64,000 bases of DNA, taken from an uncultured Actinomycetota bacterium. GTDB lineage: Bacteria; Actinomycetota; Actinomycetes; JACCUZ01. A program made the translations under genes and the position numbers. Positions 3,047-64,000 of this stretch are shown piece by piece. How positions within the stretch are numbered: the stretch's first letter is position 1; the number at the start of each line of letters is the position of its first letter. The notes beneath the pieces are model-generated. The model did no database searches. It saw nothing but the letters and a program-made list of their open reading frames with translations, and was not told where the DNA came from. Where the stretch lies: NCBI GenBank assembly GCA_963846525.1, contig CAWJWE010000001.1, forward strand, positions 164,192 through 228,191, in the 5' to 3' direction.

Positions 3047-3120
<74 letters not shown>

Positions 3121-43272: not shown

Positions 43273-43320
43273 GTCAAGAGAGGGGATCGGCCGGTTCCGG
43301 GCCGGGCTTGAGCCTTCGGC

Positions 43321-44120: not shown

Positions 44121-44190
44121 GTCCTTAATATCGTCACCACGTCTAAGGCCTGAAGGCTAATGGCGGCGGACGTGGGTCGAGCAGGGCCCG

Positions 44191-45504
44191 TCAGCGGTCG
44201 ACCTGGCGGTAGTCCGAGACCCGGAAGTCGTTCAGCAACGGGAAGTTGTCCGCCCAGCAGGCGTCCAGACGGATCTCGGCCGTGCCGTTGAACTTGTCGA
44301 GGTTCTTCGCGAAGACCGTGCCGGTGAACTTCGAGTTGCCGTTTCCGCGCAGCGTCCCGTCCGGCACGAACAGCGCCCCGACGACGTCCGCCCCCGCATT
44401 GATGCGAGCGTCGCCGCCTTCGATGATCACCACGATGGACCTCGTTCCGCAGGTCGCACTCGAGTAGCCCGTGATGGAGTTGAGGTTGACCTCGACGCCC
44501 GGGGCCACCTTGAAGTAGAGCACCGTGTTGGGGTAGTTCGCCGGGTTCGGCGACGTGTAGCTCGCCGTCGTGTAGTAGTTCCCCTGGCTCTTCGCCAACG
44601 CCTTCAACGCGGCGTACTGCTGCGGCTGGAGCCCTCGCGCGGTGAGTCCGAACGAGTCCTGCAGGTCCGTCAGCGTAAACTTCGTCGTCGTGAGGTTGTA
44701 GCAGGATCCAGGGGTCGCCTGGGGACCGCCGTAGGGAGTGGACACCGGGTACTCGGTGTTGCCGAAGCCGTAGCACTTGTTGACGTTGTTCAGGACATCG
44801 TTCGAGGCCGAGCACGCGCCGTTGCTCGAGGTCACGCCACCCGTGGTCTTGATGGAGGCCAAGCCGCCGTACCAGATGTCGTTGCCGGTGACCCCGGTGT
44901 GCTTCACGCCGCTGATGCAGCCGCTGGAGAAGATGGTCTCGTTGGTCACGTCCGCAGTACCGACAGCGACGACGCTGTCGGCGTAGACCCCGACCGGGTA
45001 GGTGAACGGCCGCGCTACGACTGTGGCTTCCACCGCTCGTACTCCGGCGGTGGAGACGCTGGTCGTGCCCTTCGACCTGATCCGGTAGACCGACTCGCGC
45101 GTGGTGGGCGGGGCCGCCTTGGCGACCCGCGAGATCCACACTGCGTACTGCTGCCCCCCCGCGCTCACCGTCTGGGCGTTCGCCGGCCCGTTCCACGCAC
45201 CGGTGCAGGCCGTGGCGCTCGTCCACGTGGTCCCGTTGAACGTGAGACCGGACTCGGGGCAGTTGATGCCACTGGCACCGCTGCGCAGGAACTCGATCCC
45301 GGCCGCGACGCCGGCGTCCGCGACGTCCAGCGCGATCGCGCCCTGCCGGTCGCGGTCCGCGTTCTGGCTGTTGGCGACCGCCATGACGGTGGCAGTGATG
45401 CCCAGACCGGACATCGTCGCCACCACCAGCATGACCACGACGATGGCGTTGCCGGCGTCCGCCGAAGCGGCGCGGACACGACGGATCAGGTGAGCGCTCA
45501 TCAT
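44191..45504 (-). CDS. PilX_N-like pilus assembly protein, 438 aa, Cys-rich
   Basis: Intact ORF. The N-terminus GNAIVVVMLVVATMSGLGITATVMAVANSQNADRDRQGAIALDVADAGVAAGIEFL resembles the PilX N-terminal domain, with no G/F cleavage motif. Ten Cys residues are spread through the rest. Its start overlaps the upstream stop (ATGA). Confidence 0.6.
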   Translation of the reverse strand: MMSAHLIRRVRAASADAGNAIVVVMLVVATMSGLGITATVMAVANSQNADRDRQGAIALDVADAGVAAGIEFLRSGASGINCPESGLTFNGTTWTSATACTGAWNGPANAQTVSAGGQQYAVWISRVAKAAPPTTRESVYRIRSKGTTSVSTAGVRAVEATVVARPFTYPVGVYADSVVAVGTADVTNETIFSSGCISGVKHTGVTGNDIWYGGLASIKTTGGVTSSNGACSASNDVLNNVNKCYGFGNTEYPVSTPYGGPQATPGSCYNLTTTKFTLTDLQDSFGLTARGLQPQQYAALKALAKSQGNYYTTASYTSPNPANYPNTVLYFKVAPGVEVNLNSITGYSSATCGTRSIVVIIEGGDARINAGADVVGALFVPDGTLRGNGNSKFTGTVFAKNLDKFNGTAEIRLDACWADNFPLLNDFRVSDYRQVDR

Positions 45505-46175
45505 GCCTTGTTCCTCATGTTGACTTGGGTCTCGTAGACCTGACGGCGGGCGCCGGTCAGGACCGTGAGCGAGATGGTCGCTCCGTTGATGTTGCGCAGC
45601 TCGATGGTGTCGAGCACACCATTCTGGTTGCCCACGCCGGCGGATAGCGGTGCGCAGTCGAGCTCCTGCCAGGTCACGACACCGTCCGGCGTCGGACTGG
45701 CGGCGCAGGCACCGTCGTACTGCCAGAGGTTGGACCGGGGCTGGATTGTGAGGCTCTGGACGTCGGAGGAGAGGATGGGCAGCGCGGCCGGGTTGTCGCA
45801 GGGGAACCCGCCTCCGACATCCGCCGTGAGGAGCAGCCTGCGGCCTGCTGTGTCCCAGCAGTAGGTCAGACGCTCGGGGTCGGCCGCGCTGGAGTCGATG
45901 CTGCCGTTGCCGTTGAAGTCGACCGTGAACGTCATCCCGGTGATCTGACCGCCCGTGATCTTGACCTCTTCGATCTCCGAGGCCTGACGCAGCTCGCGAG
46001 TGATCCGGTTCAGCGCGAGACGCGCCTGCTCGTTGAGGTCGTTGGTCTGGCGGGTGGTCTCGACGCTGCTGCTCGAGGTGGCGACGACCGTGGCGATCGC
46101 CGCGAGGATCACGAAGAACATCATCGACGCCACCAGAAGCTCGACCATGGTGAAACCTGAGTCGTCGCGCTTCAT
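45501..46175 (-). CDS. Minor pilin with prepilin-type N-terminal cleavage/methylation domain (PilW-like)
   Basis: Intact ORF. MKRDDSG/FTMVELLVASMMFFVILAAIATVV shows G-1, F+1 and E+5. It has ATGA overlaps on both sides. Confidence 0.7.
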   Translation of the reverse strand: MKRDDSGFTMVELLVASMMFFVILAAIATVVATSSSSVETTRQTNDLNEQARLALNRITRELRQASEIEEVKITGGQITGMTFTVDFNGNGSIDSSAADPERLTYCWDTAGRRLLLTADVGGGFPCDNPAALPILSSDVQSLTIQPRSNLWQYDGACAASPTPDGVVTWQELDCAPLSAGVGNQNGVLDTIELRNINGATISLTVLTGARRQVYETQVNMRNKA

Positions 46176-47932
46176 CGGTTGTCCTCTGCGTAGCAGGACA
46201 TCGGCGCGACCTGGACGGAGATGGCCGAGCCGGGGTCGCCCACCCGAGTAGGAACGGTGTTGAGCGTGATGATGCCGTCAGTAGTTCCGCGAGCGACGTT
46301 TCCTCCCGCACCGGTCAGGATGTCCAGGGTCGTGAGCGCCGTCCAGCTGGGGATGTACTCGCTCAGCCAATGGTCGGTCCCCGCCACGTTCGCGACCTTG
46401 ATGGTCGCCGGGTCGGGCAGTGCGCTGCCACCGTTCTGGACGGTGCCGACCAGCTGGTAGCTGCCGCTCTTCCAGGCGTAGACGTCGGCCTTGAAGGTTG
46501 CCGTCGCCGAGGGCGTCGTCCCGTCGGTGCTGCACTTCAGGACTGCTCCGTAGACCTGGATCTGGACGACCCCGCGCCCTGACGGTGTGAAGGTCGTCGG
46601 CATGACGTCGATGACCGATCCCGCCGCATGCGTCGACGGACACATTGCGCCAGCGGACCCGCAGGAGCCGGCCCAGGCGTTGACGGCGTGGGTCAGGCCG
46701 GACGTCTGCGTCGTCCACAGGCCGCCGAAGGCGGTGCCGTCCGCACTGCCTCCGGACGACGTGACCCCCAGCTGCTCCTTGGGCCGCAGCGTGACGAGAG
46801 GGACGTTGTTCTGAAGCATCAGGTCGATGCGGTCCGGCAGGTTCGCGAACCGGAACGCTGGTCGCCCTGCTCCCCCTGCGCCGTTCACGGAGGCGAAGAT
46901 GGGGTTGCCCGTCCCATCTGCGGCGTAGCCGACGAGCGGCAGTGCGCGGTCGACCTTGAGGGATCCCCCGGTCACGACGGTCTTGCCGAAGCAGACCGTG
47001 TTGCAACCAGTGCCCTGAAGGTCGCCACCGCTGGTGTCCGTCACGGTGGGGACGGTCTGGGACGGGGGCGCGTTGCCCGAGCTTCGGGCTCCTTGGACAT
47101 TGATGCCCGGGGTCATCGCCACCGAGGCTCCGAGCGCGTCGACCGAGGAGGTGATGCCGGCAGCCGCCGAACCGTCTGCGTTGACGCTGGCAAGGTCCGC
47201 CGTGACCTGGACGCCGCCGGGCAGGGTGCTGGCCACCTTGAGCAGCTCGGCTCGCGCCTGGCCATTCACCAGTGGCTTGGTCGGCTGCGCCTGGTCGATC
47301 CGGGTGTACGTCTTGTGCGACCGGACCTTGCCGTACCGCGTCCACACGACCTGGACGGTGACCGCCATGACGGTGCTCGGGACCTCGTCCAGACCCGCCG
47401 TGTTCTGGTAGGCGTAGCCGGCCTGGGGGGCCACCGCAGCACCGGCGCCGGTGAGGAACTGGGCGACGACGAGAATCCGATAGGTCGAGCCCTCGCCCGG
47501 GAGAGTGCGGCTGCGAACGGTTCGGTAGAAGTCGCCGGCCGGGTCCCCGGGGGCGCGACCGGCGACCGCCGCCGCCGACACGTAGCCCGTGCTGACGTTG
47601 GCGATCGTCGTCCCGGTCGCCACCGGCGTCAGGGACGGAAAGTAGTTGTCGACGAGGTCGACCTTCGCAGCCGGCGCCGCCGCACCGGTGGCGTCGCGCT
47701 GGTTGGAGGCATCCACGTGGAACGGGAGCTGGCGCATGCCCTCCACCTGGTCTTGCGCCAGGTTCCGGGCCTGGGTCGCGGTCTTGGCGAAGACCGACGC
47801 CTTGGTCATGCTCAGGAACATCGGGATCAGCGCCATCACGGCGATGCTGAAGATCATCATCGCGATGAGCAGCTCGACGAGGGTGAAGCCCTCGTCTCCC
47901 TCACGACGACCAGCGAGCTTGTTCATCAGCAT
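46172..47932 (-). CDS. Giant minor pilin (586 aa) with PilV-like N-terminus
   Basis: Intact ORF. MLMNKLAGRREGDEG/FTLVELLIAMMIFSIAVMALIPMF...ARNLAQDQVEGMRQLPF is followed by about 500 aa of Gly/Thr/Ser/Ala-rich sequence that matches no family I recognise. Confidence 0.7.
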   Translation of the reverse strand: MLMNKLAGRREGDEGFTLVELLIAMMIFSIAVMALIPMFLSMTKASVFAKTATQARNLAQDQVEGMRQLPFHVDASNQRDATGAAAPAAKVDLVDNYFPSLTPVATGTTIANVSTGYVSAAAVAGRAPGDPAGDFYRTVRSRTLPGEGSTYRILVVAQFLTGAGAAVAPQAGYAYQNTAGLDEVPSTVMAVTVQVVWTRYGKVRSHKTYTRIDQAQPTKPLVNGQARAELLKVASTLPGGVQVTADLASVNADGSAAAGITSSVDALGASVAMTPGINVQGARSSGNAPPSQTVPTVTDTSGGDLQGTGCNTVCFGKTVVTGGSLKVDRALPLVGYAADGTGNPIFASVNGAGGAGRPAFRFANLPDRIDLMLQNNVPLVTLRPKEQLGVTSSGGSADGTAFGGLWTTQTSGLTHAVNAWAGSCGSAGAMCPSTHAAGSVIDVMPTTFTPSGRGVVQIQVYGAVLKCSTDGTTPSATATFKADVYAWKSGSYQLVGTVQNGGSALPDPATIKVANVAGTDHWLSEYIPSWTALTTLDILTGAGGNVARGTTDGIITLNTVPTRVGDPGSAISVQVAPMSCYAEDNR

Positions 47933-48426
47933 CAGCGCAGTCCGTTCACGGAGACGCGAGAGGTGAGCCCCTCGACCTTGACGGTGTAGACCTTGGATGA
48001 CGACAGCCGGGTCACCTTGACGGATCCCGCCGTGGCCGTGCCACGTGGCGTGAACTGGGCGTTCGCCGTGGTGCTGCCGTCGGCCTGGAGGAAGCTCGGT
48101 GAGGCCAGGAGGACGCCGGGATTCGCGGTCACGCCCTTCGAGACGAGCAGCCCTGTCGAGCAGGTCGAGCGGTAGACCTTCCAGGCGCGTGCCGCGACGT
48201 CGAAGGTCACGCAGTAGTTGATGCCTTCGGCCTGTGCCCGGGACTGCGCGTTGCGCAGCACTTCCTCGATCTGCACCGCAGTACCGCGCTCGTCCTGAGC
48301 GTTCCGGTACCTGCTGAACCCGCCGACGGACACCGCGACGAGGATCGAGAAGATCACCATGGTGACCGACAGCTCGATCAGCGTGAAGCCTCGGTCGCCG
48401 CCACGTCGGTGCAGTCTCTCCTTCAT
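47932..48426 (-). CDS. Minor pilin, FimT/GspH-like
   Basis: MKERLHRRGGDRG/FTLIELSVTMVIFSILVAVSVGGFSRYRNAQDERGTAVQIEEVLRNAQSRA. The ATG at 48426 overlaps the upstream pilin stop. Confidence 0.65.
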   Translation of the reverse strand: MKERLHRRGGDRGFTLIELSVTMVIFSILVAVSVGGFSRYRNAQDERGTAVQIEEVLRNAQSRAQAEGINYCVTFDVAARAWKVYRSTCSTGLLVSKGVTANPGVLLASPSFLQADGSTTANAQFTPRGTATAGSVKVTRLSSSKVYTVKVEGLTSRVSVNGLR

Positions 48427-48872
48427 CAGCAGGTCCCGGTGTCGAGCCCGTTGGCAGCGGTGAACTTGTAGTCCTTCTGGCGACCCTTCGGGTCGGTGAG
48501 AGAGACGCACCACAGGGTCTCGCTGTTCAGGTTCGACGACGCGCCACTGGCCGGGCGTGCGGTGCCGTTCGTGAGATTGATGGTGGACGCATAGCCGTTC
48601 GCATCGGCGAGCACCACGCTGCCCGGCACGCTGACGAAGTCCAGGGTGAGCGTCGAGTTGCCGTCGACGAAGTAGGTGGCGACCTCTTTGGCGAGGTGCG
48701 ACACGTCTGCCTTGGTGGACGCGTCGTGGGCGTTTGCCCGCTGGCTGAGGAAGGCCGGGATCGCGATGGATGTCAGGATGCCGATGATGATCATGACCAC
48801 GAGGAGCTCGACTAGAGTGAAGCCCTGCTCGGAGGAGTTCCGCGCGGGCGACCTTGTCGACCTGGAGCTCAC
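48426..48872 (-). CDS. pilA: Type IV pilin, second paralog
   Basis: Intact 148-aa ORF. MSSRSTRSPARNSSEQG/FTLVELLVVMIIIGILTSIAIPAFLSQ is followed by a C-terminal Cys pair (LWCVSL...DTGTC). Confidence 0.85.
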   Translation of the reverse strand: MSSRSTRSPARNSSEQGFTLVELLVVMIIIGILTSIAIPAFLSQRANAHDASTKADVSHLAKEVATYFVDGNSTLTLDFVSVPGSVVLADANGYASTINLTNGTARPASGASSNLNSETLWCVSLTDPKGRQKDYKFTAANGLDTGTC

Positions 48873-49033
48873 GTCAGACCCCCTTCTTCGCTCGTGATGG
48901 CGGCGTTGAGCCGCGGCTTCACCACTCTGATCGACTCCACGTCATGAATTCTTGAGTCCTGGCGTTCGGCCGGTTGAGGCAATGTGCAGCGCTTGGCCGA
49001 CGCACGAGCTTCCGTCAAGCGGGCAGATGAGTG

Positions 49034-49069
49034 GGGGTGTGCGGAAGTCGCGTGATCTCCGCACACCCC
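49034..49069 (-). terminator. Second strong hairpin between the two pilin genes
   Basis: GGGGTGTGCGGA - 12-nt loop - TCCGCACACCCC forms a perfect 12-bp stem. No clear U-tract follows. Confidence 0.45.
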
Positions 49070-49082
49070 GGTCGGACAATGA

Positions 49083-49113
49083 CTCTGGGCGGCCCCATCG
49101 GGGCCGCCCAGAG
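49083..49113 (-). terminator. Hairpin terminator/attenuator directly after the major pilin gene
   Basis: CTCTGGGCGGCCCC-ATC-GGGGCCGCCCAGAG forms a perfect 14-bp GC-rich stem. It starts 18 nt downstream of the pilA stop (49131-49133). Confidence 0.6.
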
Positions 49114-49130
49114 CTACTCGGAGATCAGGA

Positions 49131-49571
49131 TCACGGGCAGGCGCCGGTCTCCAAACCGCCGGCGGCGGAGTACTTGTAGGTCTTCTGCTTGCCGTCGGCG
49201 TTGGTGAAGCCGATGCACCAGAGGGTGTCGCTGTTCAGGTTGGTGGCGGTCACCTGGTCGGTGCCCTTGCTGACCTTGATGTCGGCGAAAGGAACGCCGG
49301 CGTCGGAGAGGACGACGTTGTCGCCAGGAGGAGCCTGGGCGACGGTGACGTTCGGCACGGCGGCCGGCTCGACGAAGTAGGTCGCGAGCTCCTTGCCGAC
49401 GGTGGACACGTCGGCCTTGGTGGAGGAGTCCCGGGCCTTCTCACGCTGGGAGAGGAACACCGGGATGGCGATGGCGGCGAGGATGCCGATGATGATCATG
49501 ACGACGAGGAGCTCGATCAGGGTGAAGCCCTGGTCCTTCTCCTCCGCCGCCTTGCGGATGCGAGCGAGCAT
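49131..49571 (-). CDS. pilA: Type IV major pilin candidate
   Basis: Intact 146-aa ORF. MLARIRKAAEEKDQG/FTLIELLVVMIIIGILAAIAIPVFLSQ is followed by a C-terminal Cys pair (LWCIGF...ETGACP). It has a strong SD (AAGGACGGAG), its own leader and its own terminator. Confidence 0.9.
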   Translation of the reverse strand: MLARIRKAAEEKDQGFTLIELLVVMIIIGILAAIAIPVFLSQREKARDSSTKADVSTVGKELATYFVEPAAVPNVTVAQAPPGDNVVLSDAGVPFADIKVSKGTDQVTATNLNSDTLWCIGFTNADGKQKTYKYSAAGGLETGACP

Positions 49572-49643
49572 GTGATGCTCCGTCCTTTCAGGACCGATCC
49601 CGATGAGCCGCGCCGCCGGTCCCTCGCGGCACCCTTGTGGGTG

Positions 49644-49736
49644 CCGGCCGAGGCAGCTGGGCTGACCGCGATCTCTGTCACGCGGTTCCCTGGCTTTGCG
49701 ACCCCGTCTCGCGACGGGTGTGCCGTTTCTGGCCGG
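49644..49736 (-). promoter_or_regulatory. Candidate riboswitch-like aptamer (GEMM-I-like motif) in the pilA leader
   Basis: On the minus strand a closing helix CCGGCC/GGCCGG encloses two hairpins. The first is CCCGUC-GCGA-GACGGG and the second is ACCGCG..CGCGGU (extended by GGG/CCC). They are linked by GUCGCAAAGCC. This is only a partial match to the c-di-GMP-I core as I recall it. Confidence 0.35.
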
Positions 49737-49840
49737 TGTGGCTCGATGACATAGAGGTTTTCGGTGCCGTGACGGACCGCGCTTGAGCCGTTGCCGAGGA
49801 CAATTTCCGCGACCACCCGATGGGGCTAGGCCGAACGGCG

Positions 49841-49873
49841 GACGGGCCGGACGCCGAACGGGTCCGGCCCGTC
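49841..49873 (-). terminator. Hairpin terminator after pilC
   Basis: GACGGGCCGGAC - 9-nt loop - GTCCGGCCCGTC forms a perfect 12-bp stem about 20 nt downstream of the inferred pilC stop. Confidence 0.55.
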
Positions 49874-49892
49874 CGACGTGGCCAGCGGTCGG

Positions 49893-51125
49893 CTACTCTG
49901 ATCAGGTCGAAGACCTTGAAGATCGGCATGTACAGCGCGATGATCATCGACCCGATGATGCGCGCCGAGGAAGGCGATCATCAGCGGCTCGATCAGCGCG
50001 GTGAGCGCCTCGGTGGTCGCCTCGACCTCCTGGTCGTAGAACTCGGCGATCTTGTGCCAGCATCGTGTCCAGGGCGCCGGTGTCCTCGCCGACGGCCATC
50101 ATCTGCACCACCATCGGCGGGAAGACCGGGTGCTTCGCCAGCGGCTCGGCGAGCGACTCGCCGCTGCGGACGCTCTCCTGGACGTCGCGTGATGGCGCGC
50201 TCGAGGACGACGTTGCCGGTGGTGTCCGCGACGATGTCGAGCGCCTGCAGGATCGGGACGCCGGACTTCATCATGGTGCCGAGGTTGCGGGCTGAACCGG
50301 CTGAGCGCGATCTTCTGGAACAGCTGGCCGAAGACCGGCAGCTTGAGCTTGAGCGGGTCGAGCGACGTTGCGCACCTGGTCGCGTGTGCTTGACCTTGCG
50401 GCCAGGTGACCATGAAGCGCGATGAAGCCCACCACAGCCGATCGGCGCCAGCGACCTTCATCGCCTCGCTGAGGAACACCAGGACCCGGGTCGGCGCCGG
50501 CAGCGTCGCCGCCGAGGTCGTCGAACATGCCGGCGAAGACCGGGACGATGAAGAGCAGCATGCCGATGACGGCGAGGATGGCGATGACGAACACGACGAC
50601 CGGGTAGGTCATCGCCGACTTGACCTTGCCGCGCAGCTTGACCTCGGCCTCGTAGTTCGTCCGCGATCTGCAGCAGCACCGCGTCGAGGAAGCCGCCGAC
50701 CTCGCCGGCCCGGATCATGTTGACCATCAGCGGCGGGAAGACGTCCGGGTGCTTGGCCATGCGCCTGCGAGAGCGCGCTGCCGGTCTCGACGTCGTTGCG
50801 CGACCTCGCCGAGGACCCGGGCGAGCTCCTTGTTCTCGGTCTGCTCGGCCAGGATCGTCAGCGCGCGCAGCAGCGACAGGCCGGAGTTGATCATCGTCGG
50901 CGAACTGCCGCGACATGACCGCGAGGTCCTTGAGCTTGACCTTCTTGCCGAAGCCCGGGATGTTGATCTCCTTGCTTCATCCCGGCCTTGTGCTCGCTGA
51001 TGCTGACAGCGGCGCGTAGCCCATCTGTCTTGAGCTTGCTGCGCCACCGCGGCCTGGGAGTCCGCCTCCAGCGTGCCGGTGACGATCTTCCCGGTCTGGT
51101 CCCGGACCGAGTACTCGTAGGTCAT
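49893..51125 (-). CDS. pilC: Type IV pilus platform protein PilC (many frameshifts; 3' end approximate)
   Basis: The gene starts MTYEYSVRDQTGKIVTGTLEADSQAAVAQ. Two T2SSF repeats appear across frames (MINSGLSLLRALTILAEQTENKELARVLGEV and MMKSGVPILQALDIVADTTGNVVLERAI). The final helix reads MIIALYMPIFKVFDLI. Confidence 0.85.
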
Positions 51126-51149
51126 GCGTCGCTGCCATCGGATTGCCTC

Positions 51150-52737
51150 TCAGCCTCGGCCGGCGAGCCGGTTGAAGTCCTCGACGTGGTGGCACTTCTC
51201 GAGGCCGACCTCGTAGGTGATCTTGCCCTTCATCACCAGGTCGGCGAGGTGCTGGTCCATGGTGTGCATGCCGTGCTTCGCGCCGGCCTGCATGGCCGAG
51301 TAGATCTGGTGGGTCTTGCCCTCGCGGATCAGGTTGCGGATGGCCGGCGTGGCGACCAGCACCTCGGTCGCGACGGCCCGGCCCGTGCCCGTCGCGCGGT
51401 CTTGGCCAGGGTCTGGCAGACGACGCCCTGCAGCGAGCCGGCCAGCTGGACGCGGACCTGCTGCTGCTGGTTGGGCGGGAAGACGTCGATGATGCGGTCG
51501 ATCGTCTGCGCGGCGTCCTGGGTGTGCAGGGTGGCGAAGACGAGGTGGCCGGTCTCGGCGGCGGTCAGCGCCACCGAGATGGTCTCCAGGTCGCGCATCT
51601 CGCCGACCAGGATGATGTCGGGGTCCTGGCGCAGCACGTGCTTGAGCGCGTTCTGGAAGGACTAGGTGTCCTCCCCCACCTCGCGCTGGTTGACGATGCA
51701 CTTCTGGTGCCGGTGCAGGAACTCGATCGGGTCCTCGACGGTCATGATGTGCTCGCTGCGCGGTCCGGTTGGCCAGGTCGATCAGCGACGCGAGCGTCGT
51801 CGACTTGCCGGAGCCGGTCGGGCCGGTGACGAGGACGAAGCCGCGCGGCAGCGACGCGAAGTTCGGCCACCGACGGCGGCACGCCGAGGTCCTCGAGCTT
51901 GCTTGATCTCGAACGGGATGATGCGGAAGGCCGCGCCGAGCGCGTCGCGCTGGCGGTAGATGTTGACGCGGAACCGGGCCCGGCCCGGGACGCTGTAGGC
52001 GAAGTCGAGCTCGAGGTTCTCCTCGAACTTCTCCCGCTGCTTCTGGGTGAGGGCGGCGTAGAGCACCCGCTGGATGACCGGCGGGGTGAGGATCGGCTGG
52101 TCCTCCAGCTGCTTCAGCTCGCCGTTGAGCGGATCGCGGGCCGGGCGCCCGACGTCAGGTGCAGGTCGGAGGCGCCGCGTGTCGAGCACGTGCATCAGCA
52201 GGTCGTTGAGGCTGATGTCGTTCTCGTCGCCCTCGGCCTCGGTCGAGCCGCGCTGGTAGGCCGACTCCTCGGCCTCCGACTCGGCGACCAGCACCGAGGC
52301 TGCCGTCGCGAGACGCTCACGACGTCGCCCGCGAACGCGGCCGGGGCCGGCGGCGAGCGGTGCTCGTCGACGGGGCGACCTGCTCGCGGCAGCGTAGGCG
52401 GTGGGCGCCTGCGGGCAGCGCGGCTGGCGCCGCGAGCTCGGGCGCCGGCGTCGTACGACACCGGCTGCTCGAGCGCGGCGGCCGGCGGCTGGTACGGCAG
52501 GGCTCCAGCGAGGCCACCGGCCGGCGGGAGCGGGCTCGGCGACCGGGGCCGCTCGGCAGGACCGGGGCGATCGGCGCGGACAGCTCGTCGGCCTCCGCGG
52601 CACCGGGCTCGGCCGACGTAGGAGTAGGTCCACCCGGCGCCCGGGCTCGTCGGCCTCGGCCTCGGGCGCGTCGGCACGGGCACGGCCGCGAAGCCTCCCG
52701 GCTCGTTCGGCACCGGCTGGTATCCGGACGTCTCCAC
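51150..52737 (-). CDS. pilT: Twitching-motility retraction ATPase PilT with Pro/Ala-rich N-terminal region (frameshifts plus an in-frame TAG; start uncertain)
   Basis: The core fragments read [12 protein letters not shown]...[72 protein letters not shown], then [29 protein letters not shown]. An in-frame TAG (51662-51664) follows, then [47 protein letters not shown] and [14 protein letters not shown]. Confidence 0.85.
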
Positions 52738-52850
52738 CTGCTGACCCCTCTCGCTACGGCGGCCCGCGGACCGCGGCACACCTGTCTCGCGAGAGGATCG
52801 GCCGATCGGGCCCTGGCCTTGAGCCGTCGGTGGCCGACCTTGCCAGGTCT

Positions 52851-54534
52851 TTAGACGACGACGCGGAGGATCTCCTCGAGCGAGGTGACGCCCGCGAGCA
52901 CCTTGTCCAGCCCGTCGTCGCGCAGCGTCCTCATGCCCTCGTTCGCGTGGCCACCTGCTCGATCACCGTCGGCGGAGGCGCTGCTCGACGGCGAGCCGCT
53001 CGATCTCCTCGGTGACCGCCATGACCTCGTGCAGCGCCAGCCGGCCCTTGTAGCCGGTCTTGGCGCACGCCGAGCAGCCGACCGGCCGGAACAGCTCGGG
53101 CAGCGGCTCGCCGTCGTGCCACGGGAACCGGGACGCCACCAGGAGCTCCGCGGGTCGGGCGTGTACGCCTCCTTGCACTTCGCGCACAGCCGGCGGGCGA
53201 GCCGCTGGGCGAGCACCGCGTCCAGCGCCGACCCGACGAGGAACGGCTCGATGCCCATCTCGGTCAGCCGGGTGATCGGCCGACGGCGCGTCGTTGGTGT
53301 GCAGGGTCGACAGCACGAGGTGGCCGGTGAGGGCGGCCTCGACGGCGATCTGCGCCGGTCTCGTGGTCGCGGATCTCACCGATCAGCACGATGTCGGGGT
53401 CGGACCGCAGGATCGAGCGCAGCGCCGAGGCGAACGTCAGGCCGGCCTTGGTGTTGGTCTGCACCTGGTTGATGCCGGGCAGCCGGTACTCGACCGGGTC
53501 CTCGACCGTGATGACGTTGACCTCGGGCCTGCTGACGATGTTCAGCGTGGCGTACAGCGTCGTCGACTTGCCGGACCCGGTCGGCCCGGTGACCAGGATC
53601 ATCCCGTACGGCTTGGTGAAGCTCTCGCGAGTAGCGCTCGTAGTTGCTGCTCGGAGAAGCCGAGGTCGGTCGAGGTCCAGCTGCGCCGTGGAGTTGTCCA
53701 GGATTCGCATGACGACCTTCTCGCCCCACACCGTCGGCAGGGTCGCGACGCGCAGGTCGATCTTGCTTGCCCGTGGGCGTTGACCGACAGGCGGCCGTCC
53801 TGCGGGATGCGGCGCTCGGCGATGTTGATGTCGGCCATGATCTTCAGCCGGCTGATGACGCCGGACTGGATCGCCTTCGGCGAGCGCATGACCTCGTGCA
53901 GCACGCCGTCGATGCGGAAGCGCACCCGCAGGTCGTGCTCGGTCGGCTCGAGGTGGATGTCCGACGCGCGGTCCTGGATCGCCTGCGTGATCAGCAGGTT
54001 GACGTACTTGACGATCGGCGCGTCCTCGACGATCTCCTTGACCTTGGAGAGGTCGTCCTCCTCCTCCTGCGCGTCGAGGACGCTGGTGAGGTCGTCGATG
54101 TCGGAGTCGGCGCGGTAGTAGCGGTCGATCGCGGCGGCGACGTCGGCCCGGGTGGCGACGACCGGCTTGACGTCCATGCCGGTGAGCGACGCGGATGTCG
54201 TCGATCGCGAAGACGTTGGCCGGGTCGGCCATCGCGACCAGCAGCTTGCCGTCCTCGAAGCCGATCGGCATGCGCCGAGTGGCGGCGGCACGACCGGCGC
54301 CGGGGACCCGGCCGACGGCGGAGCCGTCGACCGGCGAAGTCGGAGAGGTCGACGAACCGCAGGCCGATCTGGGTGGCGAGCGCGGCGACCAGCTGGGACT
54401 CGGTGAGCACGCCCTGCTCGATCAGCACGCGCCCGAGGGCCCGGCCGACCCGCTGCTGCTCGTCGTAGGCGGCCTGCGAGCTGGGTCGGGCTGACCAGCC
54501 CGCCCTCCAGCAGGATGTCGCCGAGCTGCTTCAC
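52851..54534 (-). CDS. pilB: Type IV pilus assembly (extension) ATPase PilB (many frameshifts)
   Basis: The N-terminus reads [19 protein letters not shown]. ATPase-core fragments include [12 protein letters not shown], the Walker A site [48 protein letters not shown] and [15 protein letters not shown] Cys cluster reads CAKCKE...[12 protein letters not shown], and the C-terminus reads [26 protein letters not shown]. Confidence 0.9.
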
Positions 54535-54797
54535 GCGCCGTCCCTTCCCGTGTACGAGATGTCCTCCCTGACCATCGGGTCAGGCAGGTGCGTTCCTGAA
54601 GCAGTCGCGCGACGGCTCACCAGTGAGCGAGCAGTGCGGCGATCTGGCCCATCGAGCGGGCCAGCGCCGAGTCCGGCGGTACGGCGACCACCTGGCCTCC
54701 GTGCGAGCACCAGCGTCACGCTGACCGGCGGGTCGGGACGGCGGCGACGCCCGCCCGTCAGACCGGTCGCGCAGGCCCCACATCGGCCACGGCCACC

Positions 54798-55376
54798 TCA
54801 GGCCCGGACGGCCTCGGTCTCGACCTCGTCGAGGACCGCGTAGAGCAGGGCCAGCAGGACGTTCTTGACCGACTCCTTGTCGGTGGCGTCGCACGGCGAG
54901 GATGGCCACGTCGGACGGGATGTCCAGCTGCTGCCGGACCCCCTCGATCAGCGCGTGGTCCTCGGCGCCGGCCCGGTTGAGCGCGACGACGTACGGCACC
55001 CGCGCCATCGTCCGGAACGCGCTCGAGGATGCCGCGCAGCCTCCTGCACGGAGTCCTCACGGGACGCGTCGACGAGCAGCAGGTAGCCGATCATGCCCTC
55101 GCCGAGGATCTCCCACATGAAGTCGAAGCGGTCCTGGCCCGGGGTGCCGAACAGGTAGAGCACCAGGTCGCGGTCGATCGTGATGCGACCGAAGTCCATC
55201 GCCACGGTCGTCTCGGCCTTGCGCTTGCGGGTCGAGTCGGTGATCCCGCGCTCGGTCGAGAGCACGGTGATCTCGCTGATGGTGCGGATCAGCGTCGTCT
55301 TGCCGGCGGCGAACGGGCCGGTGACGACCACCTTCACTGCCTGTCCGCCGCGGCGGCGAGCCCGTCCGGTTGCCAC
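54798..55376 (-). CDS. Small Ras-like GTPase of the MglA/CvnD ('ATP/GTP-binding protein') type (about 2 frameshifts)
   Basis: [21 protein letters not shown] (P-loop)...TVAMDFGRI...[19 protein letters not shown]...GYLLLVD is followed by [35 protein letters not shown] and [21 protein letters not shown]. The GTG overlaps the upstream stop. Confidence 0.75.
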
Positions 55377-56647
55377 TAGAGACCCCTCACGCCGGCGATG
55401 AGCCGCAGCATCAGGCTGCGGTTGACGTTGGGGTCCCGCTCGATGACGGACAGCGCATCCGGGTCCGGAGCGGTCGCGGTGGCACCGACGACGTCGCCGA
55501 GCCCGGACATCGAGGCCGACGGCCCCGCCTGCACGTGCACGGCGCGGACGGCAGGTGCCGACGGCGTCTCCTCGAAGTCGGCCTGCCGCTTGGGCAGGAA
55601 CGGCTCGGGCCGCGGCGGCACGACGTCCTGCGGGACGTGCGCCCCGCCGAGCATCACCGGGCCGTCGGCGCCGGCCGTGGCGGTGGCCAGCTCACGCTCG
55701 CCGCCGTCGGCGTCCGGGGACGACAGGCCCTGCTGACCGGCGTCGCCCTCGTCACCGGCGGACGAGCTGGCGTGGGCCTCGGCCATCGCCTTCGCGGCCT
55801 TCCCGGGCTGCTTCGCCGGCGGCGCGGGCGGAGCTTCCTCGGTCGGTGTCTCCTGGACGGGGACGAACGGCGCGTCCTCGAGCGGGGCGAGCAGGCGCTG
55901 GCGGCGCACGACGACGGTGACGTGGTCGTCGGCCTCGCCCGACTCCGGGCGGACCTCGAGCAGGCCGCGCTGCACGAGAGCGGCGAGGGTCGACACGACG
56001 GCGTACTGGCCGCTGCCGGTGAGGTCGACCAGCTCGGTGACGCTGCGCCGTCCGTCGACCAGGGCGAGCAGCGACCACTCCTCGCGGGTGACCTCCGGGT
56101 CGGTCGGCAGCACGACCGGCATGGACGAGGACGGCCCGGGGCGACGGCACGACCTGCGACACGCGTCTCCCAGGTCGAGCTGGCGGGACTCGGCGTCGGC
56201 GAGGACCGCCTCGACCGACAGCGTCACGCCGACGTCGTCCGGGTTGGCCTCGTCCATGACGAAGGCGAAGTCGCCGTCGCGCCAGCGGAGCAGGTCGAAC
56301 ACGGCGTCGACGGACTGGTCGGTGGCGGCCCGGCGGAGCAGGTCGGCGTCGACGGCGCCGTGCTCGAGCAGGGCCCGGACGACGCCGAGGCCCTCGCCCT
56401 GGCCGGCGGCGTCGACGGCGGCGGTCAGGGCCTCGTCGGTCGAGCGTGCCGCTGCCGACCAGGCGCCGGGCCAGCGGCTGCCGCGAGCTGTCCGCCGACG
56501 CGCCGGTGATCTGGCCGCTGGTGAAGAAGACGACGCCGTCGCGAGCCGTCGCTGGGCCAGGTGCAGCCCGCCGGTCTTCTTGGTGAAGCTCAGCAGCTGG
56601 AAGATGTCCGGCAGGCTGAACGCGTCGAGCGAGCCCTCGAGCTTCAT
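55376..56647 (-). CDS. DUF4388 (PATAN) domain protein with disordered Pro/Ala-rich C-terminal half (at least 2 frameshifts)
   Basis: The DUF4388 signature reads [30 protein letters not shown]...[19 protein letters not shown]. This is followed by [46 protein letters not shown], a low-complexity region and a conserved-looking tail ([19 protein letters not shown]). Confidence 0.65.
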
Positions 56648-56649
56648 CG

Positions 56650-57183
56650 TCAGCTCCAGCTCGGTCGTCTCGGTCGACGCGGCTGGCCGGCCGTGCTCGT
56701 CACGTAGGTGCGGCTGGGTCGACGACCTGCAGCGGTGCGGCGCGGGCCGCTCGGGGACGTGCCTCGTAGGCGCAGCTCGACGCGCAGCGCATCGGCGACG
56801 GCGGCGGCGGCCCGGCGCACCTCGAAGAGCATCAGGCCGACCTTGGCGCCCTTGGCGGCGACGGCGACCAGGACGGCCTCGTCGTCGGCCGAGATCAGGA
56901 AGACGGTGCCGTTCTCGCCCTCGACGTAGACCTGGGACAGGGCGCCGCGGCCGAGGCCCTCGGCGGCGCGCTCGCCCAGCGAGAGCAGGGCGGCGCTCAT
57001 GGCGGCCACCCGGTCCTCGTCCATGCCGGCCGGCAGGGCGGAGGCCATCGCGAGGCCGTCGAAGGACACCACGGACGCAGCCTCGATCTCGGGCACCTGG
57101 CCCACCAGCTCGCTCAGGATCCGGTCCAGCTGGCTCGACCTGCTCGGGCCAGCCGACGACTGGTCGCCATACGCTTCGCTCAT
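56650..57183 (-). CDS. Roadblock/LC7 (MglB-like) domain protein (3' end uncertain)
   Basis: LDRILSELVGQVPEIEAASVVSFDGLAMASALPAGMDEDRVAAMSAALLSLGERAAEGLGRGALSQVYVEGENGTVFLISADDEAVLVAVAAKGAKVGLMLFEVRRAA matches the Robl_LC7 fold. Confidence 0.75.
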   Translation of the reverse strand: MSEAYGDQSSAGPSRSSQLDRILSELVGQVPEIEAASVVSFDGLAMASALPAGMDEDRVAAMSAALLSLGERAAEGLGRGALSQVYVEGENGTVFLISADDEAVLVAVAAKGAKVGLMLFEVRRAAAAVADALRVELRLRGTSPSGPRRTAAGRRPSRTYVTSTAGQPRRPRRPSWS

Positions 57184-57232
57184 CGTCCACCTCGTGCCGC
57201 TGCTGCCGGGCGACGTTCGACCCGTTCCGTCC

Positions 57233-58170
57233 CTAGACCCATCGGCGGGGTTGCCCGATGCTTGAGCGACGGCCGGACGACGGCGGTGAGCCGCTCGGAG
57301 GACCCGGAGGAGCAGCGGGTGCCTCAGCGCGCAGCGCGCGCTCCCCCGCCGCCCGCAGGACCCGGGCCAGCTCGGCACGTCGACCTCGGCGCCGGTCATC
57401 AGCGACACCTGCAGCACGGCCTGGTGGACCAGCAGGTCCAGGCCGTCGACGACCGGGCCGCCGCGCGCCACCCAGGCGGCCGCGAGCGGGGTCGGCCACG
57501 GGTCGTAGAGCACCTCGAAGAGCACGCCGACTGCGCGGCGGCACCGCCGGCGACCAGCGCGTCGGTGCCGCCGGCGGCGGTCGTCGCGACCACCAGCGGC
57601 GCGTCCAGCGCCGTCGCGCGGCGCGGCCCACGGCTCGACCTCGAGGGTGCACCCCGGCGCCGGCCGCGGCCGGCTCGAGACCGGCTCGGCGGGCCGGGTC
57701 GCGGACGTAGGCCGGCACCGAGCGGGTCACCGCCGCCAGAGCGGCGACCGCCGAGCGCGGCCGTGGCGCCCGCCGCCGAGCACGACCGCGCCGGTCGACC
57801 GTGCTGACCCCGCGGGTCGGCGCAGCGCGGCCGACCATGCCCGGGACGTCGGTGTTCTCCCCCACCCGGCGGCCGTCCCGGAGCAGCACGGTGTTGGCGG
57901 CGCCGACGGTCTCGACGACCGGCGAGGCGGCGTCCAGCAGCGGCAGCACGGCAGCCTTGAGCGGCATGGTCAGCGACAGTCCGGCCCACGACGGCGTCGA
58001 GGCCGGCCAGGAAGCCGGCCAGGCCGGCCTCGTCGACGTCGTACGCGTCGTAGGTCCAGCCGGTCAGCCCGAGCGTGGGCGTAGGCAGCGCGGTGCAGCG
58101 CCGGCGACAGCGAGTGCCCGACCGGGGAGCCGAGCACCGCGGCCCGGCGCGTCGCGGGACCCGCGGTCAC
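57233..58170 (-). CDS. aroE: Shikimate dehydrogenase (several frameshifts; 3' end uncertain)
   Basis: Fragments across frames read [21 protein letters not shown], then [43 protein letters not shown], then [17 protein letters not shown]...[13 protein letters not shown]. The GTG overlaps the mltG stop. Confidence 0.8.
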
Positions 58171-59291
58171 TGGTTGGACTTGAGCTCGTCCTTGAACCGG
58201 AGGAACTCCTGGTAGTCGCCGGTGAACTTCGTCGTGCCCTTCTCCGGGTCGGTCGTGACGAAGTACAGCCAGTCGCCCTCGGTCGGGTTGACCGCTGCGG
58301 TCATCGCGGCGCAGCCCCGGCGAGTTGATCGGTGCCGGGCGGCAGCCCGGTGTTCTTGTAGGTGTTGTACGGCGAGTCGGCGCCGAGGTCCTCGTAGGTG
58401 ACGATCTCCTTGTCGGCCTTGAGCGCGTAGTTGACCGTCGAGTCGAACTGCAGCGGCATGCCCTGCTCGAGCCGGTTGTAGACGACCCGGGCGACCTTGC
58501 CGAAGTCCTCGGCGTAGCCGGGCCTCGGCCTCGACCAGGCTGGCGATGATGACGATCTCCTCCGGGGACGCGCTGGGTGCGCTCGACCCCGGCCTTGTCC
58601 GCCGCCGCCGCGTACGCCGTCGAACAGCTGGGTCAGCACGCCGGCGGCGTCGGCGTTCGGCTGCACGTCGTAGGTCGCCGGGTAGAGGAAGCCCTCCGGG
58701 TTGCCCTCGGCGTAGTCCGGGCAGACCGAGCTCGCCGGCCGTTGCTTGAGCGCCTTCTCGTAGTCCTCGAGCGGCAGCTCGGTGCTCCTTGGCCAGCCGC
58801 TGCAGGGTCTCGTCGAGCCGCAGGCCCTCGGGCAGGGTGACCCGCGCCTGGATCCGGGCCGCGGGGTCGAGCACGGCGGCCAGGGCGTCGGCGGCCGGCA
58901 TCTTGTGCTGCAGCTGGTAGAAGCCGGGCTGCAGGTTGGACGCGTCCGGGTCGGCGTTGGCGGCCTCGATGAACGCCTGGGTGCTCTTGACGACGTCCTC
59001 GGACTTCAAGCGTCTCGGCCACGTCGGCGGCGGTCTGGCCGGACTTCGACCTCGATGACGACCTCGCCCTCGCCCGGGCCGGGGTAGTCGGGGGCGCTCG
59101 AGGACGAGAAGGTGTCCTTGAGCTTGCTGATGCCGCCCATGGCGAGCACCGCGCCGCCGCCGAGGACGGCCGACCACGAGGAGCAGGGCGACGACGACGG
59201 CGAACCCGTCCTTGCCGCGGTTGCTTCTTGCGCCGCCGGCGACGGCGCCGGGGCGCGCCTCCTCCTCCGACCACACGGACAGATCCGTCAT
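58167..59291 (-). CDS. mltG: Endolytic murein transglycosylase MltG/YceG (several frameshifts)
   Basis: The gene starts [12 protein letters not shown] followed by a TM segment. Later fragments read [64 protein letters not shown]...[14 protein letters not shown] and [21 protein letters not shown]. Confidence 0.85.
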
Positions 59292-59301
59292 GCCTCGCCT
59301 C

Positions 59302-59810
59302 TCACGTCGTCCGGCGCACCCGCAGCCTCGCGGGCGGCAGGCTCGTCGCCCCGTGTGCGTGCGCTCGACCAGCCGGCCAGGTGCCACGCCGGACGCCCTC
59401 TCGGCGTCCAGCGCGCCTTGCAAGATGATGACAGCAGCGGCCTGGTCGATGACGCTGCGGCCCGTGCGCGTGTCTACCCCGCTCGCCTGCAGTCCACGCT
59501 GGGCACCGACCGTGGAGAACCGCTCGTCGACCAGCCGGACCGGCGACCGCGAGACGGTCGGCCAGCTGTCCAGCGTACGCGGCGGCGGCCTCGGCGGCCG
59601 GTCCGGGCCGACCGGACAGCGACGTCGGCAGACCGACGACGACCTCGACGGCGTCACGCTCGGTGACCAGCGCCGGCCAGCGCCGCCAGGTCGCCCTGGT
59701 CGCGGCGCAGCGTCTGCGACGGGGGTCGCGATCAGGCCGGCCGGGTCGCAGGCGGCCACCCCGACCCGGACCGAGCCGACGTCGACACCCAGCCGTACGC
59801 CGGCCCGCAT
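59302..59810 (-). CDS. ruvX: Holliday-junction-resolvase-like nuclease RuvX/YqgF (at least 2 frameshifts)
   Basis: Fragments read [31 protein letters not shown], then [30 protein letters not shown], then [11 protein letters not shown]...[19 protein letters not shown]. Confidence 0.8.
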
Positions 59811-59827
59811 GGTCGCGCCTCCCGACC

Positions 59828-62831
<3,004 letters not shown>

Positions 62832-63265
62832 CTACTGCGCCTTCCGCCGCTTCGCCGCGCGCGCGGCGGCCTGCTGGGCCCGGGTCTGGTCGGCCACCTT
62901 GCGCCGGGTGCGGGCACCCGGGCCGGTCGGCGAGCGCGCTCCGGACGCCGTAGGTGAAGGCGGCGACCTTGACCACCGGGCCGCCGAGGGTGGCCGCGAA
63001 CAGTGCGGTGAGCGCCGAGACGTTGGTCGTCGCCGCCTGCACGTTGGAGGTGATGGCGTCGACCCGGACCAGCTGGGCGTTGGTCGTGGTCACCGTGGTG
63101 GTGACCTCGTTGAGCAGCGGGACGGTCTCGTCGGACACGCCCTTGATCATGCTGCCGGGTCTCGTCGAGGACGCCGCCGAGCTTGACCAGCGGGATCGCC
63201 AGAGCGCCCACCAGCAGCACGAACGCCACGGCCGCGATGAGTCCCGCGACGTCTCCGACCGACAT
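62832..63265 (-). CDS. DUF948-like membrane protein (about 2 frameshifts)
   Basis: MSVGDVAGLIAAVAFVLLVGALAIPLVKLGGVLDET continues as SMIKGVSDETVPLLNEVTTTVTTTNAQLVRVDAITSNVQAATTNVSALTALFAATLGGPVVKVAAFTYGV. The tail is basic. Confidence 0.6.
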
Positions 63266-64000
63266 GCGCCGACCCTATCGCGGGCCCTGAGACCGTCGAT
63301 CCTCGATGCACTGACACGACGAGTCATGCCGGCGCGTCTGGTGCGCCGCGCAACGTGGCTCACTCGATGGCCGTGTCCACAGCGGGTCGCGCGTGGCCGG
63401 CCGCCGTCCACCGGTCGGCGTCCGGCCGGCCGGACCGCGGTGCCGGGCCGATGGTCGGCGCGTGGCGTCCTACCGAAGCGGTCCGGCCGCTCGCTCGACC
63501 CGCGACGCGCTCGAGCCGCTCGGCGTCGGCTGGCGGCGAGCTGGCCGGCCCGCTCTGGCGTCTCCCTACCGCGGCGTGCACCGGCCGAGCGACCGCCGAC
63601 GGCGAGCCCTCGCCGCTGCAACGGGCCCTCGACGTCGCCGAGCGTGCTGCCCGACGGGTGCCGCATCGGCGGCTGGGCAGCCGCGCACCTGCTCGGCGCT
63701 GAGCGAGCTCGACGGGCGGGCTCGGTCGGCGAGCGCTCGAGCCGGTGCCGGTCATGCCTGCCGCCGCCGCTGCGGATCCGGCGCCCGGCCCGGGCTGGTG
63801 CGTGGCGCTCGGAGCTCGGCGGACGACGAGCGGCGTCGACGATCGGCGGCGTCGTCTGCACGGTCAGCCGTCCGGACCGGCATTCGACCTGGCCCGGCTG
63901 CGCGACCTGCGCAGCGGCGTGGTCCGCCTGGACGTCCTGGGCCGGCAGGTCGGCCTGTCCCCGGCGGCTGTGCTGCGCTCACGCCGCGGCGCCGCCGTCG

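Follow-up and report, generated by a model that had tools for sequence, protein, structure and literature searches.

A kinase-less roadblock-PATAN-GTPase module beside pilB is a candidate regulator for the motor of type IV pili in uncultured Actinomycetota

The stretch of DNA analysed here (the window, 64,000 nucleotides of contig CAWJWE010000001.1 from an uncultured Actinomycetota bacterium) carries a small gene module next to a type IV pilus gene cluster. [quoted passage not shown] Comparative sequence evidence makes it a strong candidate for controlling the pilus motor of single-membrane bacteria. More specifically, we propose that it may be a conservon-like G-protein switch without a kinase that is dedicated to the type IVa pilus machine, with the PATAN protein as an adaptor acting on PilB/PilC; the chances of this reading appear to us about even. 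Little is known about where and when single-membrane (Gram-positive) bacteria build type IV pili, and the module, if the reading is true, is a compact candidate for this control. It would extend G-protein control of the pilus motor to Actinomycetota and connect MglA/MglB polarity, the actinobacterial conservons and the cyanobacterial PATAN regulators, which have so far been separate. The four proteins are small and soluble and could be synthesised from the sequences of intact relatives.

The module genes are located on the minus strand, where a preliminary description of this DNA had put them (Table 1). In coding direction the order is alaS, ruvX, mltG, aroE, roadblock, PATAN, GTPase, pilB, pilT and pilC. 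Two pilin genes, three minor-pilin-like genes, pilM, pilO, aroC, aroB and aroQ follow on the same strand. The pil genes thus continue in the orientation of the module, as had been claimed, and their products are those of a type IVa pilus cluster: PilB (MshEN and T2SSE domains), PilT, PilC (T2SSF), prepilin-type pilins, PilM and PilO. All window genes from alaS to aroC are accounted for, which leaves no room for a kinase or a DUF742 gene. The spacing of the module genes is as described before: 2 nt (a single nt in intact relatives) separate the roadblock stop codon from the PATAN ATG, and PATAN stop and GTPase start overlap by 1 nt (TAGTG). Translation of the roadblock, PATAN and GTPase genes is coupled. 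The triad had been placed directly upstream of pilB, but the gap of 263 nt contains a conserved promoter-like motif and a conserved ORF, a fourth gene that had been overlooked.

This small ORF encodes 54-61 residues with the core GRHRRPDPPVxVTLVLxDGxExxLPxDSALARSMGQxAALLAHW, and the product usually ends in AHW. A hidden Markov model (HMM) detects it in 25 related loci in addition to the window. Since its divergence by codon position is 0.26/0.19/0.45, we read it as coding. The product has no Pfam match. In one relative (L033) the small ORF remains beside pilB despite a 7.5 kb insertion of metabolic genes, and divergent versions follow the GTPase gene in two loci of the Frankiales type (L038 and L040).

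To place the module in a wider context, 185,579 species-representative genomes were scanned for two peptide motifs of the PATAN protein, which gave 37 loci. All of them belong to metagenome-assembled genomes (MAGs) of uncultured Actinomycetota, and with these two patterns no cultured strain was found among the representatives. Together with three Frankiales/Mycobacteriales-type contigs these loci form the set L001-L040, in which 38 of 40 reach the GTPase gene. In 27 of these 38 loci pilB lies less than 600 nt away. Three loci, with an inserted Wzy_C gene, have it 2-3 kb downstream and two have it 7.5 kb or 9 kb downstream, and in six the sequence ends before pilB; its absence was never shown. 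An equally frequent occurrence of the triad away from pil genes, which the preliminary description had named as a finding that would refute its idea, was not seen in the 38 loci. Loci L034-L036 were considered as triads without pil genes, but this was rejected, as in L039 pilB is located behind an island of ~9 kb, i.e. beyond the flanks available for L034-L036. The upstream neighbour in the Frankiales type is uvrC-rapZ-yvcK-whiA rather than aroE, and the island in L039, a glycosylation island ending in Wzy_C, separates module and pilB. As pilB is kept although the upstream neighbour and the DNA in between vary, the pilus linkage survives changes on both sides. The Wzy_C gene between GTPase gene and pilB (L028, 12232-14244; L032, 12068-14155; L026) encodes an O-antigen-ligase-like membrane protein, and the Frankiales-type insert (L038-L040, 12-21 kb) comprises glycosyltransferases, DegT, a flippase, methyltransferases and Wzy_C. 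Glycosylation of pilins is plausible.

Distant GTPases with 57-67% identity in the N-terminal half were retrieved by a search of 1.8 billion cluster representatives. In L041 a gene ending in the C-terminal motif of the PATAN protein precedes the GTPase gene, minor pilin genes and pilB, and in L043 such a gene precedes the GTPase gene and pilB. A Coriobacteriia MAG (L046/L047) shows the order aroE, pilB-like gene, PATAN, GTPase, pilB, pilT, pilC, pilin and pilD; L048/L049, likewise from Coriobacteriia, have the same layout plus a roadblock gene (aroE-pilB'-Robl-PATAN-GTPase-pilB-pilC-pilins-pilD). On two short contigs (L044/L045) a pair of roadblock-like genes comes after the GTPase gene. Within Actinomycetota, the position of the module next to pilB is maintained in two classes, Actinomycetes and Coriobacteriia. 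The absence of the kinase and DUF742 genes, claimed before for the window, agrees with its gene inventory, and no Pfam match to HATPase_c or HisKA was found beside the module in L038-L040 and L046-L049. As a further observation, the Coriobacteriia loci encode a second PilB-like ATPase (MshEN and T2SSE) just upstream of the roadblock/PATAN genes (L046, 3267-4940; L048, 5399-7036; L049, 3581-5254), and an extension-ATPase homolog thus lies on either side of the module.

The domain assignments of the preliminary description were borne out by Pfam HMMs for all three proteins (Table 1). For the GTPase, the small_GTP model of NCBIfam/TIGR gives a match of 1e-10. Its G1 P-loop, G2 (ETTVAMDF) and G3 (GTPGQ) are invariant in the window GTPase and 35 orthologs, in which G4 (NR[AST]x and then the acidic pair DD) and G5 (CDA[TV]D) are invariant as well. 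The P-loop GxxxxGK[ST], a Thr in place of the intrinsic Arg beside the G2 Thr, and GTPGQ in G3 assign the protein to the catalytic type of groups 2-5 of the MglA family, as these are defined by Wuichet and Sogaard-Andersen 2015 (PMC4316618). It is not an MglA proper (group 1), since it has E-T-T without Arg, GTPGQ rather than TVPGQ and NR[AST]x rather than [NT]KxD in G4; matches to MglA structures in the PDB are weak (5e-4). The G4 NxFD and G5 DAR of CvnD-type (group 2) GTPases are not found either. When 150 GTPase cluster representatives were sorted by regular expressions for G4 and G5, many turned out to be truncated or frame-shifted gene calls.

The roadblock protein matches the PDB sequences 7f8m (2.8e-21), CvnB5 (3leq, 1.1e-11) and Rv3364c (5e-10). 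No MglB chain was found at E<=1 in this PDB sequence search, and MglC reached 0.029. With the NCBIfam MglB equivalog model NF052242 the protein scores 16.2 bits, far from the cut-off of 200. It is hence a roadblock protein of the CvnB kind by its Robl_LC7, CvnB5 and Rv3364c matches, and it carries the 'DG' pair that PMC4316618 reports for the MglB partners of groups 2-5. Of the earlier label 'MglA/CvnD-like' for the GTPase the conservon part stands: the pair of GTPase and roadblock protein belongs to the conservon (CvnB/CvnD) type and not to the MglA/MglB type. The C-terminal extension of the roadblock protein (56650-56770, minus strand; also L005 9900-9999, L036 and L038) is variable and Pro-rich and always ends in (P/Q)(S/T)WS.

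The PATAN protein matches PF14332 over 156 residues against a profile of 122 positions. In the model, helices 57-119 are inserted into a beta-rich core; the protein has the helical (alpha-clip) insertion that characterises such domains. Alignments of 18-90 homologs show the same architecture throughout: PATAN domain, winged helix, a helix with the pattern DHVxVVxRRQxLLAxLE, a linker, the motif EPFLPxR and a C-terminal helix. The linker is variable, acidic or proline-rich, and EPFLPxR and the C-terminal helix are invariant in these alignments; in the Coriobacteriia type EPFLPxR is not clearly preserved. An AlphaFold2 model based on 90 sequences from three lineages has a pLDDT of 78 overall, above 90 for residues 1-235 and below 50 for the linker; a model from a shallow alignment of 29 sequences (pLDDT 46) was discarded. 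Helix 404-416 at the C-terminus is modelled with a pLDDT of ~92 and conserved across the three lineages. The 'long disordered tail' described before is therefore a disordered linker that carries two conserved motifs, one of them this helix. The helix is amphipathic and membrane targeting was considered, but since it is acidic in the Coriobacteriia and conserved at specific positions, we favour a protein interface. No receiver domain was found (Pfam Response_reg), the C-terminal half consisting of linker and one helix. A Foldseek search of the PATAN-winged-helix core against the PDB gave no significant relative (best E 0.39); there is a weak match to an N-terminal fragment of PilB (TM 0.31). 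Sequence-profile matches in the PDB were limited to kelch-repeat proteins and are spurious. A total of 1422 PATAN homologs were detected, and the top 120 (59-89% identity) match nearly all along the full length and are almost all metagenomic.

Several known systems resemble the module. The conservons (also AGPS; CvnA-CvnB-CvnC-CvnD, Mfp in mycobacteria) occur in the same phylum, and the module roadblock protein is closest to CvnB-type structures. The module GTPase shares the catalytic signature of the conservon GTPases (TT in G2, GTPGQ in G3, no Lys in G4), and in both systems the genes are tightly coupled with a third gene between those for roadblock protein and GTPase. To judge by these features, the roadblock-GTPase pair is conservon-like. 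In contrast to conservons, however, the module has neither a CvnA sensor histidine kinase nor a detectable DUF742/CvnC protein. It differs further in G4 (NRxx instead of NxFD) and G5 (DA[TV] instead of DAR), in its extra small ORF, its embedding in a pilus cluster and its WhiG-type promoter motifs, and it occurs as one copy per locus rather than as many paralogous operons. The PATAN protein had been said to take the place of both kinase and DUF742 protein. By gene order it occupies the CvnC slot, not that of the kinase. The mycobacterial CvnB homolog MfpD is the GTPase-activating protein (GAP) of its GTPase and the CvnC homolog MfpC probably the guanine nucleotide exchange factor (PMC13343842). 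Published AGPS surveys anchor on cvnA (PMC13343842) and would therefore miss the module. The EPFLPxR motif resembles the C-terminal LPxR which PMC4316618 mentions for CvnA kinases, a resemblance that we take as a lead. The same paper gives LPxR as absent from the partners of group 3-5 GTPases, whereas the module has the invariant EPFLPxR in its PATAN protein.

The group 1 system MglA/MglB, known from Myxococcus xanthus and Thermus thermophilus, likewise combines a small Ras-like GTPase with a roadblock-fold partner and is linked to type IV pilus function. In Myxococcus, MglA-GTP recruits PilB via the effectors SgmX, FrzS and SopA (PMC11580455). The module GTPase, in contrast, lacks the intrinsic arginine finger, has GTPGQ instead of TVPGQ and a non-canonical G4, and the roadblock protein is below the MglB family cut-off. 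The putative effector, the PATAN protein, is encoded in the operon, whereas mglA does not lie beside its partner genes. In addition, the host of the module is monoderm. The third system, the cyanobacterial PatA-type PATAN-REC regulators (PixG, PixE, LsiR, TaxP2), has the PATAN domain with alpha-clip insertion in common with the module. According to a preprint on these proteins (10.1101/2021.06.11.447907), the PATAN domain of Synechocystis alone binds the N-domain of PilB1 and the N-terminal domain (NTD) of PilC and switches pilus-driven movement, and the alpha-clip insertion is similar to the beginning of PilB-type ATPases. The module protein differs by the lack of a receiver domain and of a chemosensory kinase input, and by its winged helix, disordered linker and conserved C-terminal helix; its presumed input is the GTPase, not phosphorylation.

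Neighbourhoods of MglA or MglB genes with PATAN genes were noted computationally by Makarova et al. 2006 and, for groups 1 and 5, by Wuichet and Sogaard-Andersen 2015 (PMC4316618), and a possible pilus link was voiced in 2021 in the preprint of Han et al. (10.1101/2021.06.11.447907). The same three kinds of protein as in the module are encoded together there. The passages concerned call the association occasional, and these passages do not mention an embedding in pil clusters of Actinomycetota. Full-text literature searches returned no kinase-less roadblock-PATAN-GTPase module in actinobacterial pilus clusters, and the small ORF was not found there either. The view that the arrangement is experimentally uncharacterised thus holds insofar as no paper describing it was found, but MglA/MglB-PATAN neighbourhoods in general and their possible connection with pili are already in print (PMC4316618; 10.1101/2021.06.11.447907).

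For the proposed G-protein switch the following mechanism is conceivable. The GTPase, a member of the MglA family without intrinsic arginine finger, would cycle between nucleotide states, and by analogy to MfpD and MfpB the CvnB-like roadblock dimer would be its GAP. The PATAN protein would be the effector or adaptor of this switch and may contact the MshEN/N1 domain of PilB and/or the NTD of PilC with its alpha-clip-bearing PATAN domain, as in cyanobacterial PixE/PixG. EPFLPxR and the invariant C-terminal helix might tie the protein to the GTPase or roadblock protein, or keep the PATAN domain autoinhibited. The output would be an on/off or a spatial gating (placement) of pilus extension, and c-di-GMP inputs, through the pilA riboswitch and a sigma factor of the WhiG type, may be layered on top. 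Several points weigh against this reading. The contacts between GTPase and roadblock protein, GTPase and PATAN protein, and PATAN protein and PilB/PilC are ones that we infer, and the case is drawn from comparative genomics of uncultured organisms, every carrier found being an uncultured MAG or a metagenome contig. The winged helix could bind DNA. G4 lacks both the Lys and the Asp of NKxD, so that guanine specificity is uncertain. The Coriobacteriia locus L046 has PATAN and GTPase genes but no roadblock gene. Finally, pilB has its own promoter motif, hence module and motor need not share a transcript, and the number of such motifs in the window is not above chance (see below).

A more far-reaching and distinctly more tentative idea is that the module is the monoderm counterpart of MglA-SgmX-PilB and a missing link between MglAB and conservons. 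It would then be an ancient pilus-dedicated switch of Actinomycetes and Coriobacteriia in which the PATAN domain mimics the alpha-clip start of PilB and is released or tethered by the NRxx GTPase, while the ~55-residue protein acts on PilB. The conservons would be derived, kinase and DUF742 protein having replaced the PATAN protein. Two further observations were made by eye. The first ~55 residues of PilB (54380-54534, minus strand) contain two repeats resembling xLGxxLLxxGLVxxxQLxxAxxxQ, which we take to be the 24-residue c-di-GMP-binding motif of MshEN. Two degenerate copies of this pattern are seen in the alpha-clip insertion of the PATAN protein (~56330-56480, minus strand).

Alternatively, the module may regulate transcription, with the PATAN-winged-helix protein binding DNA, its activity set by GTPase and roadblock protein, and gene expression as output. 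It would in this respect parallel the conservons, for which expression changes are the known phenotypes. Residues ~185-235 match a MarR_2-like winged helix-turn-helix with E 1e-4 to 1e-5 and are modelled with a pLDDT above 90, but at 22.6-25.7 bits the match stays under the Pfam cut-off of 27 bits. At E<=10 this segment matches MarR_2, HTH_9, HTH_47 and DUF7303 in Pfam and not DUF742, although very weak matches may be hidden by the HMMER filters. Transcriptome changes in conservon/AGPS mutants (PMC13343842) would fit a transcriptional output, as would group 3 MglA systems with a REC-like and winged-helix protein, which PMC4316618 predicts to regulate transcription. For the cyanobacterial PatA-type proteins, however, 10.1101/2021.06.11.447907 judges DNA binding unlikely and describes binding to PilB1/PilC and a reversal of phototaxis by the PATAN domain on its own. 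Moreover, the pil genes are already under sigma-factor and riboswitch control, and no conserved operator-like repeat was seen, though none was specifically sought. Hence, we regard a transcriptional role as unlikely.

Equally improbable in our view is that the module belongs to the WhiG regulon as a general G-protein switch for polarity or development, for which the pilus would be one client or a mere neighbour and the linkage a consequence of co-expression at one stage of the life cycle. The promoter-like motifs of the sigma-28/WhiG type listed in Table 1 bear on this explanation and, as a sign of co-regulation of module and pilus genes, also speak for the pilus-dedicated switch proposed above. 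They follow the consensus of actinobacterial WhiG/sigma-28 factors, and according to a prediction in the same source, a preprint of 2026 (PMC12871210), WhiG controls the pilus clusters of several actinobacterial families. A match with the spacing of the motif before the roadblock gene is present in nearly all of L001-L040, the Frankiales type among them, and lies upstream of the conserved roadblock core by 76-151 nt. The one before pilB is a conserved block (CTTCAG...CCCGATGG) whose end is, in most loci, 32-83 nt away from the pilB start, and that before pilT is conserved 56-60 nt before the start, again in most loci. All four minus-strand matches to [CT]TCA-N16-17-[GC]CCGA in the window precede the roadblock gene, pilB, pilT or pilM. 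Five matches in the whole window are no more than expected by chance (6.3 +/- 2.6), and a promoter function is thus argued by placement and conservation, not by count. In L001, L006, L011, L013, L020, L028 and L031 such a motif is also present ~225 nt upstream of pilA, ahead of the riboswitch. As the motifs precede pilT, pilM and pilA too, they suggest that a single alternative sigma factor may drive the whole pilus locus. A scan of 54300-57500 for generic sigma-70 promoters and terminators found nothing.

Because the shared motif stands before the roadblock gene, pilB, pilT and pilM each, module and motor genes look like separate transcription units of one regulon; separate promoters for module and pilB had been overlooked in the preliminary description. 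This independence of the module's motif from that of pilB speaks for a general switch. Likewise, the Frankiales-type module follows the developmental gene whiA and lies 9 kb from pilB, and Myxococcus MglA serves two motility machines (PMC11580455). On the other hand, the pilB linkage is kept while the upstream neighbour and intervening DNA change, which speaks against a mere neighbourhood. In addition, the inserted DNA is mostly pilus-related (Wzy_C, glycosylation island), and distant relatives place the GTPase gene directly against pilin genes and pilB.

The preliminary description had overlooked that none of the three genes encodes the right protein unbroken in the window as given. The frame of the GTPase stops at 54948 after 142 codons and is restored by three 1-nt corrections near 55036, 55022 and 54894. 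At least six insertions of single bases interrupt the domain-coding part of the PATAN gene, and the roadblock gene is frame-shifted in its C-terminal tail with an intact domain core. The window has a G+C content of ~73%. An alignment of 13.9 kb to the intact relative L001 revealed 253 insertion or deletion (indel) events, 188 of which are insertions, mostly of one G or C where the surrounding sequence is GC-rich. The events occur in every aligned gene at similar rates, including alaS, mltG and aroE; alaS has 44 and aroE 21 events whose length is not a multiple of three. Several long ORFs of the window are artificial fusions of housekeeping genes, for example 58170-60560, which joins the AlaS C-terminus, RuvX and YceG. 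The shifted segments of the module genes still encode the conserved and invariant residues perfectly, and in other assemblies the genes of close relatives are intact; among the related genomes are many long-read MAGs. Since indels hit every gene and the relatives are intact, the frameshifts most likely reflect uncorrected long-read assembly error and not decay of the module. Decay into pseudogenes, which the early GTPase stop and the multiple frameshifts in all three module genes could suggest, is rejected as very improbable, given that housekeeping genes are hit at a similar rate and fused by the same errors, that most events are insertions, that conserved residues are preserved and that close relatives are intact. 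The idea that the insertions form non-random, frame-restoring triplets was dropped, as the net indel length is a multiple of three in only 5 of 10 genes. The indel-ridden stretch spans 44000-64000, and the whole window is likely affected.

Table 1. Features of the module and the adjoining pilus genes in the window. Sequence handles refer to the locus set L001-L040.
Feature	Position	Strand	Basis
Roadblock/LC7 gene (CvnB-like)	56650..57183	-	Pfam Robl_LC7 6.9e-18 (hand-corrected translation)
PATAN-winged-helix-disordered linker-FLPxR-C-terminal helix protein, ~420 aa	55376..56647	-	Pfam DUF4388/PatA_N 1.2e-23
Ras-like small GTPase of the MglA family (catalytic type of groups 2-5)	54798..55376	-	Pfam ATP_bind_1 2.2e-18, Ras 2.7e-6
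Conserved small ORF, 54-61 aa	54617..54783	-	Intergenic alignment and HMM; one frameshift in window
pilB extension ATPase (MshEN + T2SSE)	52851..54534	-	tblastn with intact L001/L005 PilB; frame-shifted in window
pilT retraction ATPase	51150..52737 (approximate ends)	-	tblastn; frame-shifted; L005 ortholog Pfam T2SSE 8e-48
pilC platform protein	49897..51137 (approximate ends)	-	tblastn; frame-shifted; L005 ortholog Pfam T2SSF 1e-68
Sigma-28/WhiG-type promoter-like motif before roadblock gene	57239..57266	-	CTCAAG-N14-GCCGATGG; fits CTCA-N16-GCCGA; motif scans
Sigma-28/WhiG-type promoter-like motif before pilB	54572..54600	-	TTCAGG-N..-CCCGATGG
Sigma-28/WhiG-type promoter-like motif before pilT	52795..52823	-	CTCAAG...GCCGATCC
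Sigma-28/WhiG-type promoter-like motif before pilM	43284-43312	-	CTCAAG-N14-15-GCCGA type

The pilus genes show further features. The PilB fragment of the window matches Pfam T2SSE with 1.1e-54, and the L005 ortholog matches T2SSE with 3e-143 and MshEN with 7e-25. PilT has a Pro/Ala-rich N-terminal extension of ~200 residues (~52130-52737 in the window, minus strand; 14076-14700 in L005), which is unusual for PilT. Its first ~22 residues are conserved and it contains a GWTYxFV motif; the extension could be a docking site.

The major pilin gene (49131-49571) has a c-di-GMP-I riboswitch in its leader (49649-49734, minus strand; 51.5 bits against a gathering score of 35). Such a riboswitch was found upstream of pilA in all six close relatives checked (L001, L002, L005, L006, L008 and L011), in two copies where pilin genes are arranged in tandem, and it is absent from the Coriobacteriia locus L046. 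The locus thus shows several candidate layers of pilus control, namely the G-protein module, the WhiG-type motifs, the c-di-GMP riboswitch and the MshEN domain on PilB.

Another association of PATAN and PilB is found in L050 (8001-16750). Here a short paralog of 249 residues, with PATAN domain and winged helix but without linker and C-terminal helix, heads a chemosensory cluster of CheR, REC, a PilB-like ATPase, two CheW, a methyl-accepting chemotaxis protein (MCP) and CheA, which would provide a Che input. Elsewhere in the window, an FMN riboswitch (9504-9654, minus strand, 85 bits) and a tRNA gene (3047-3120, minus strand) were identified.

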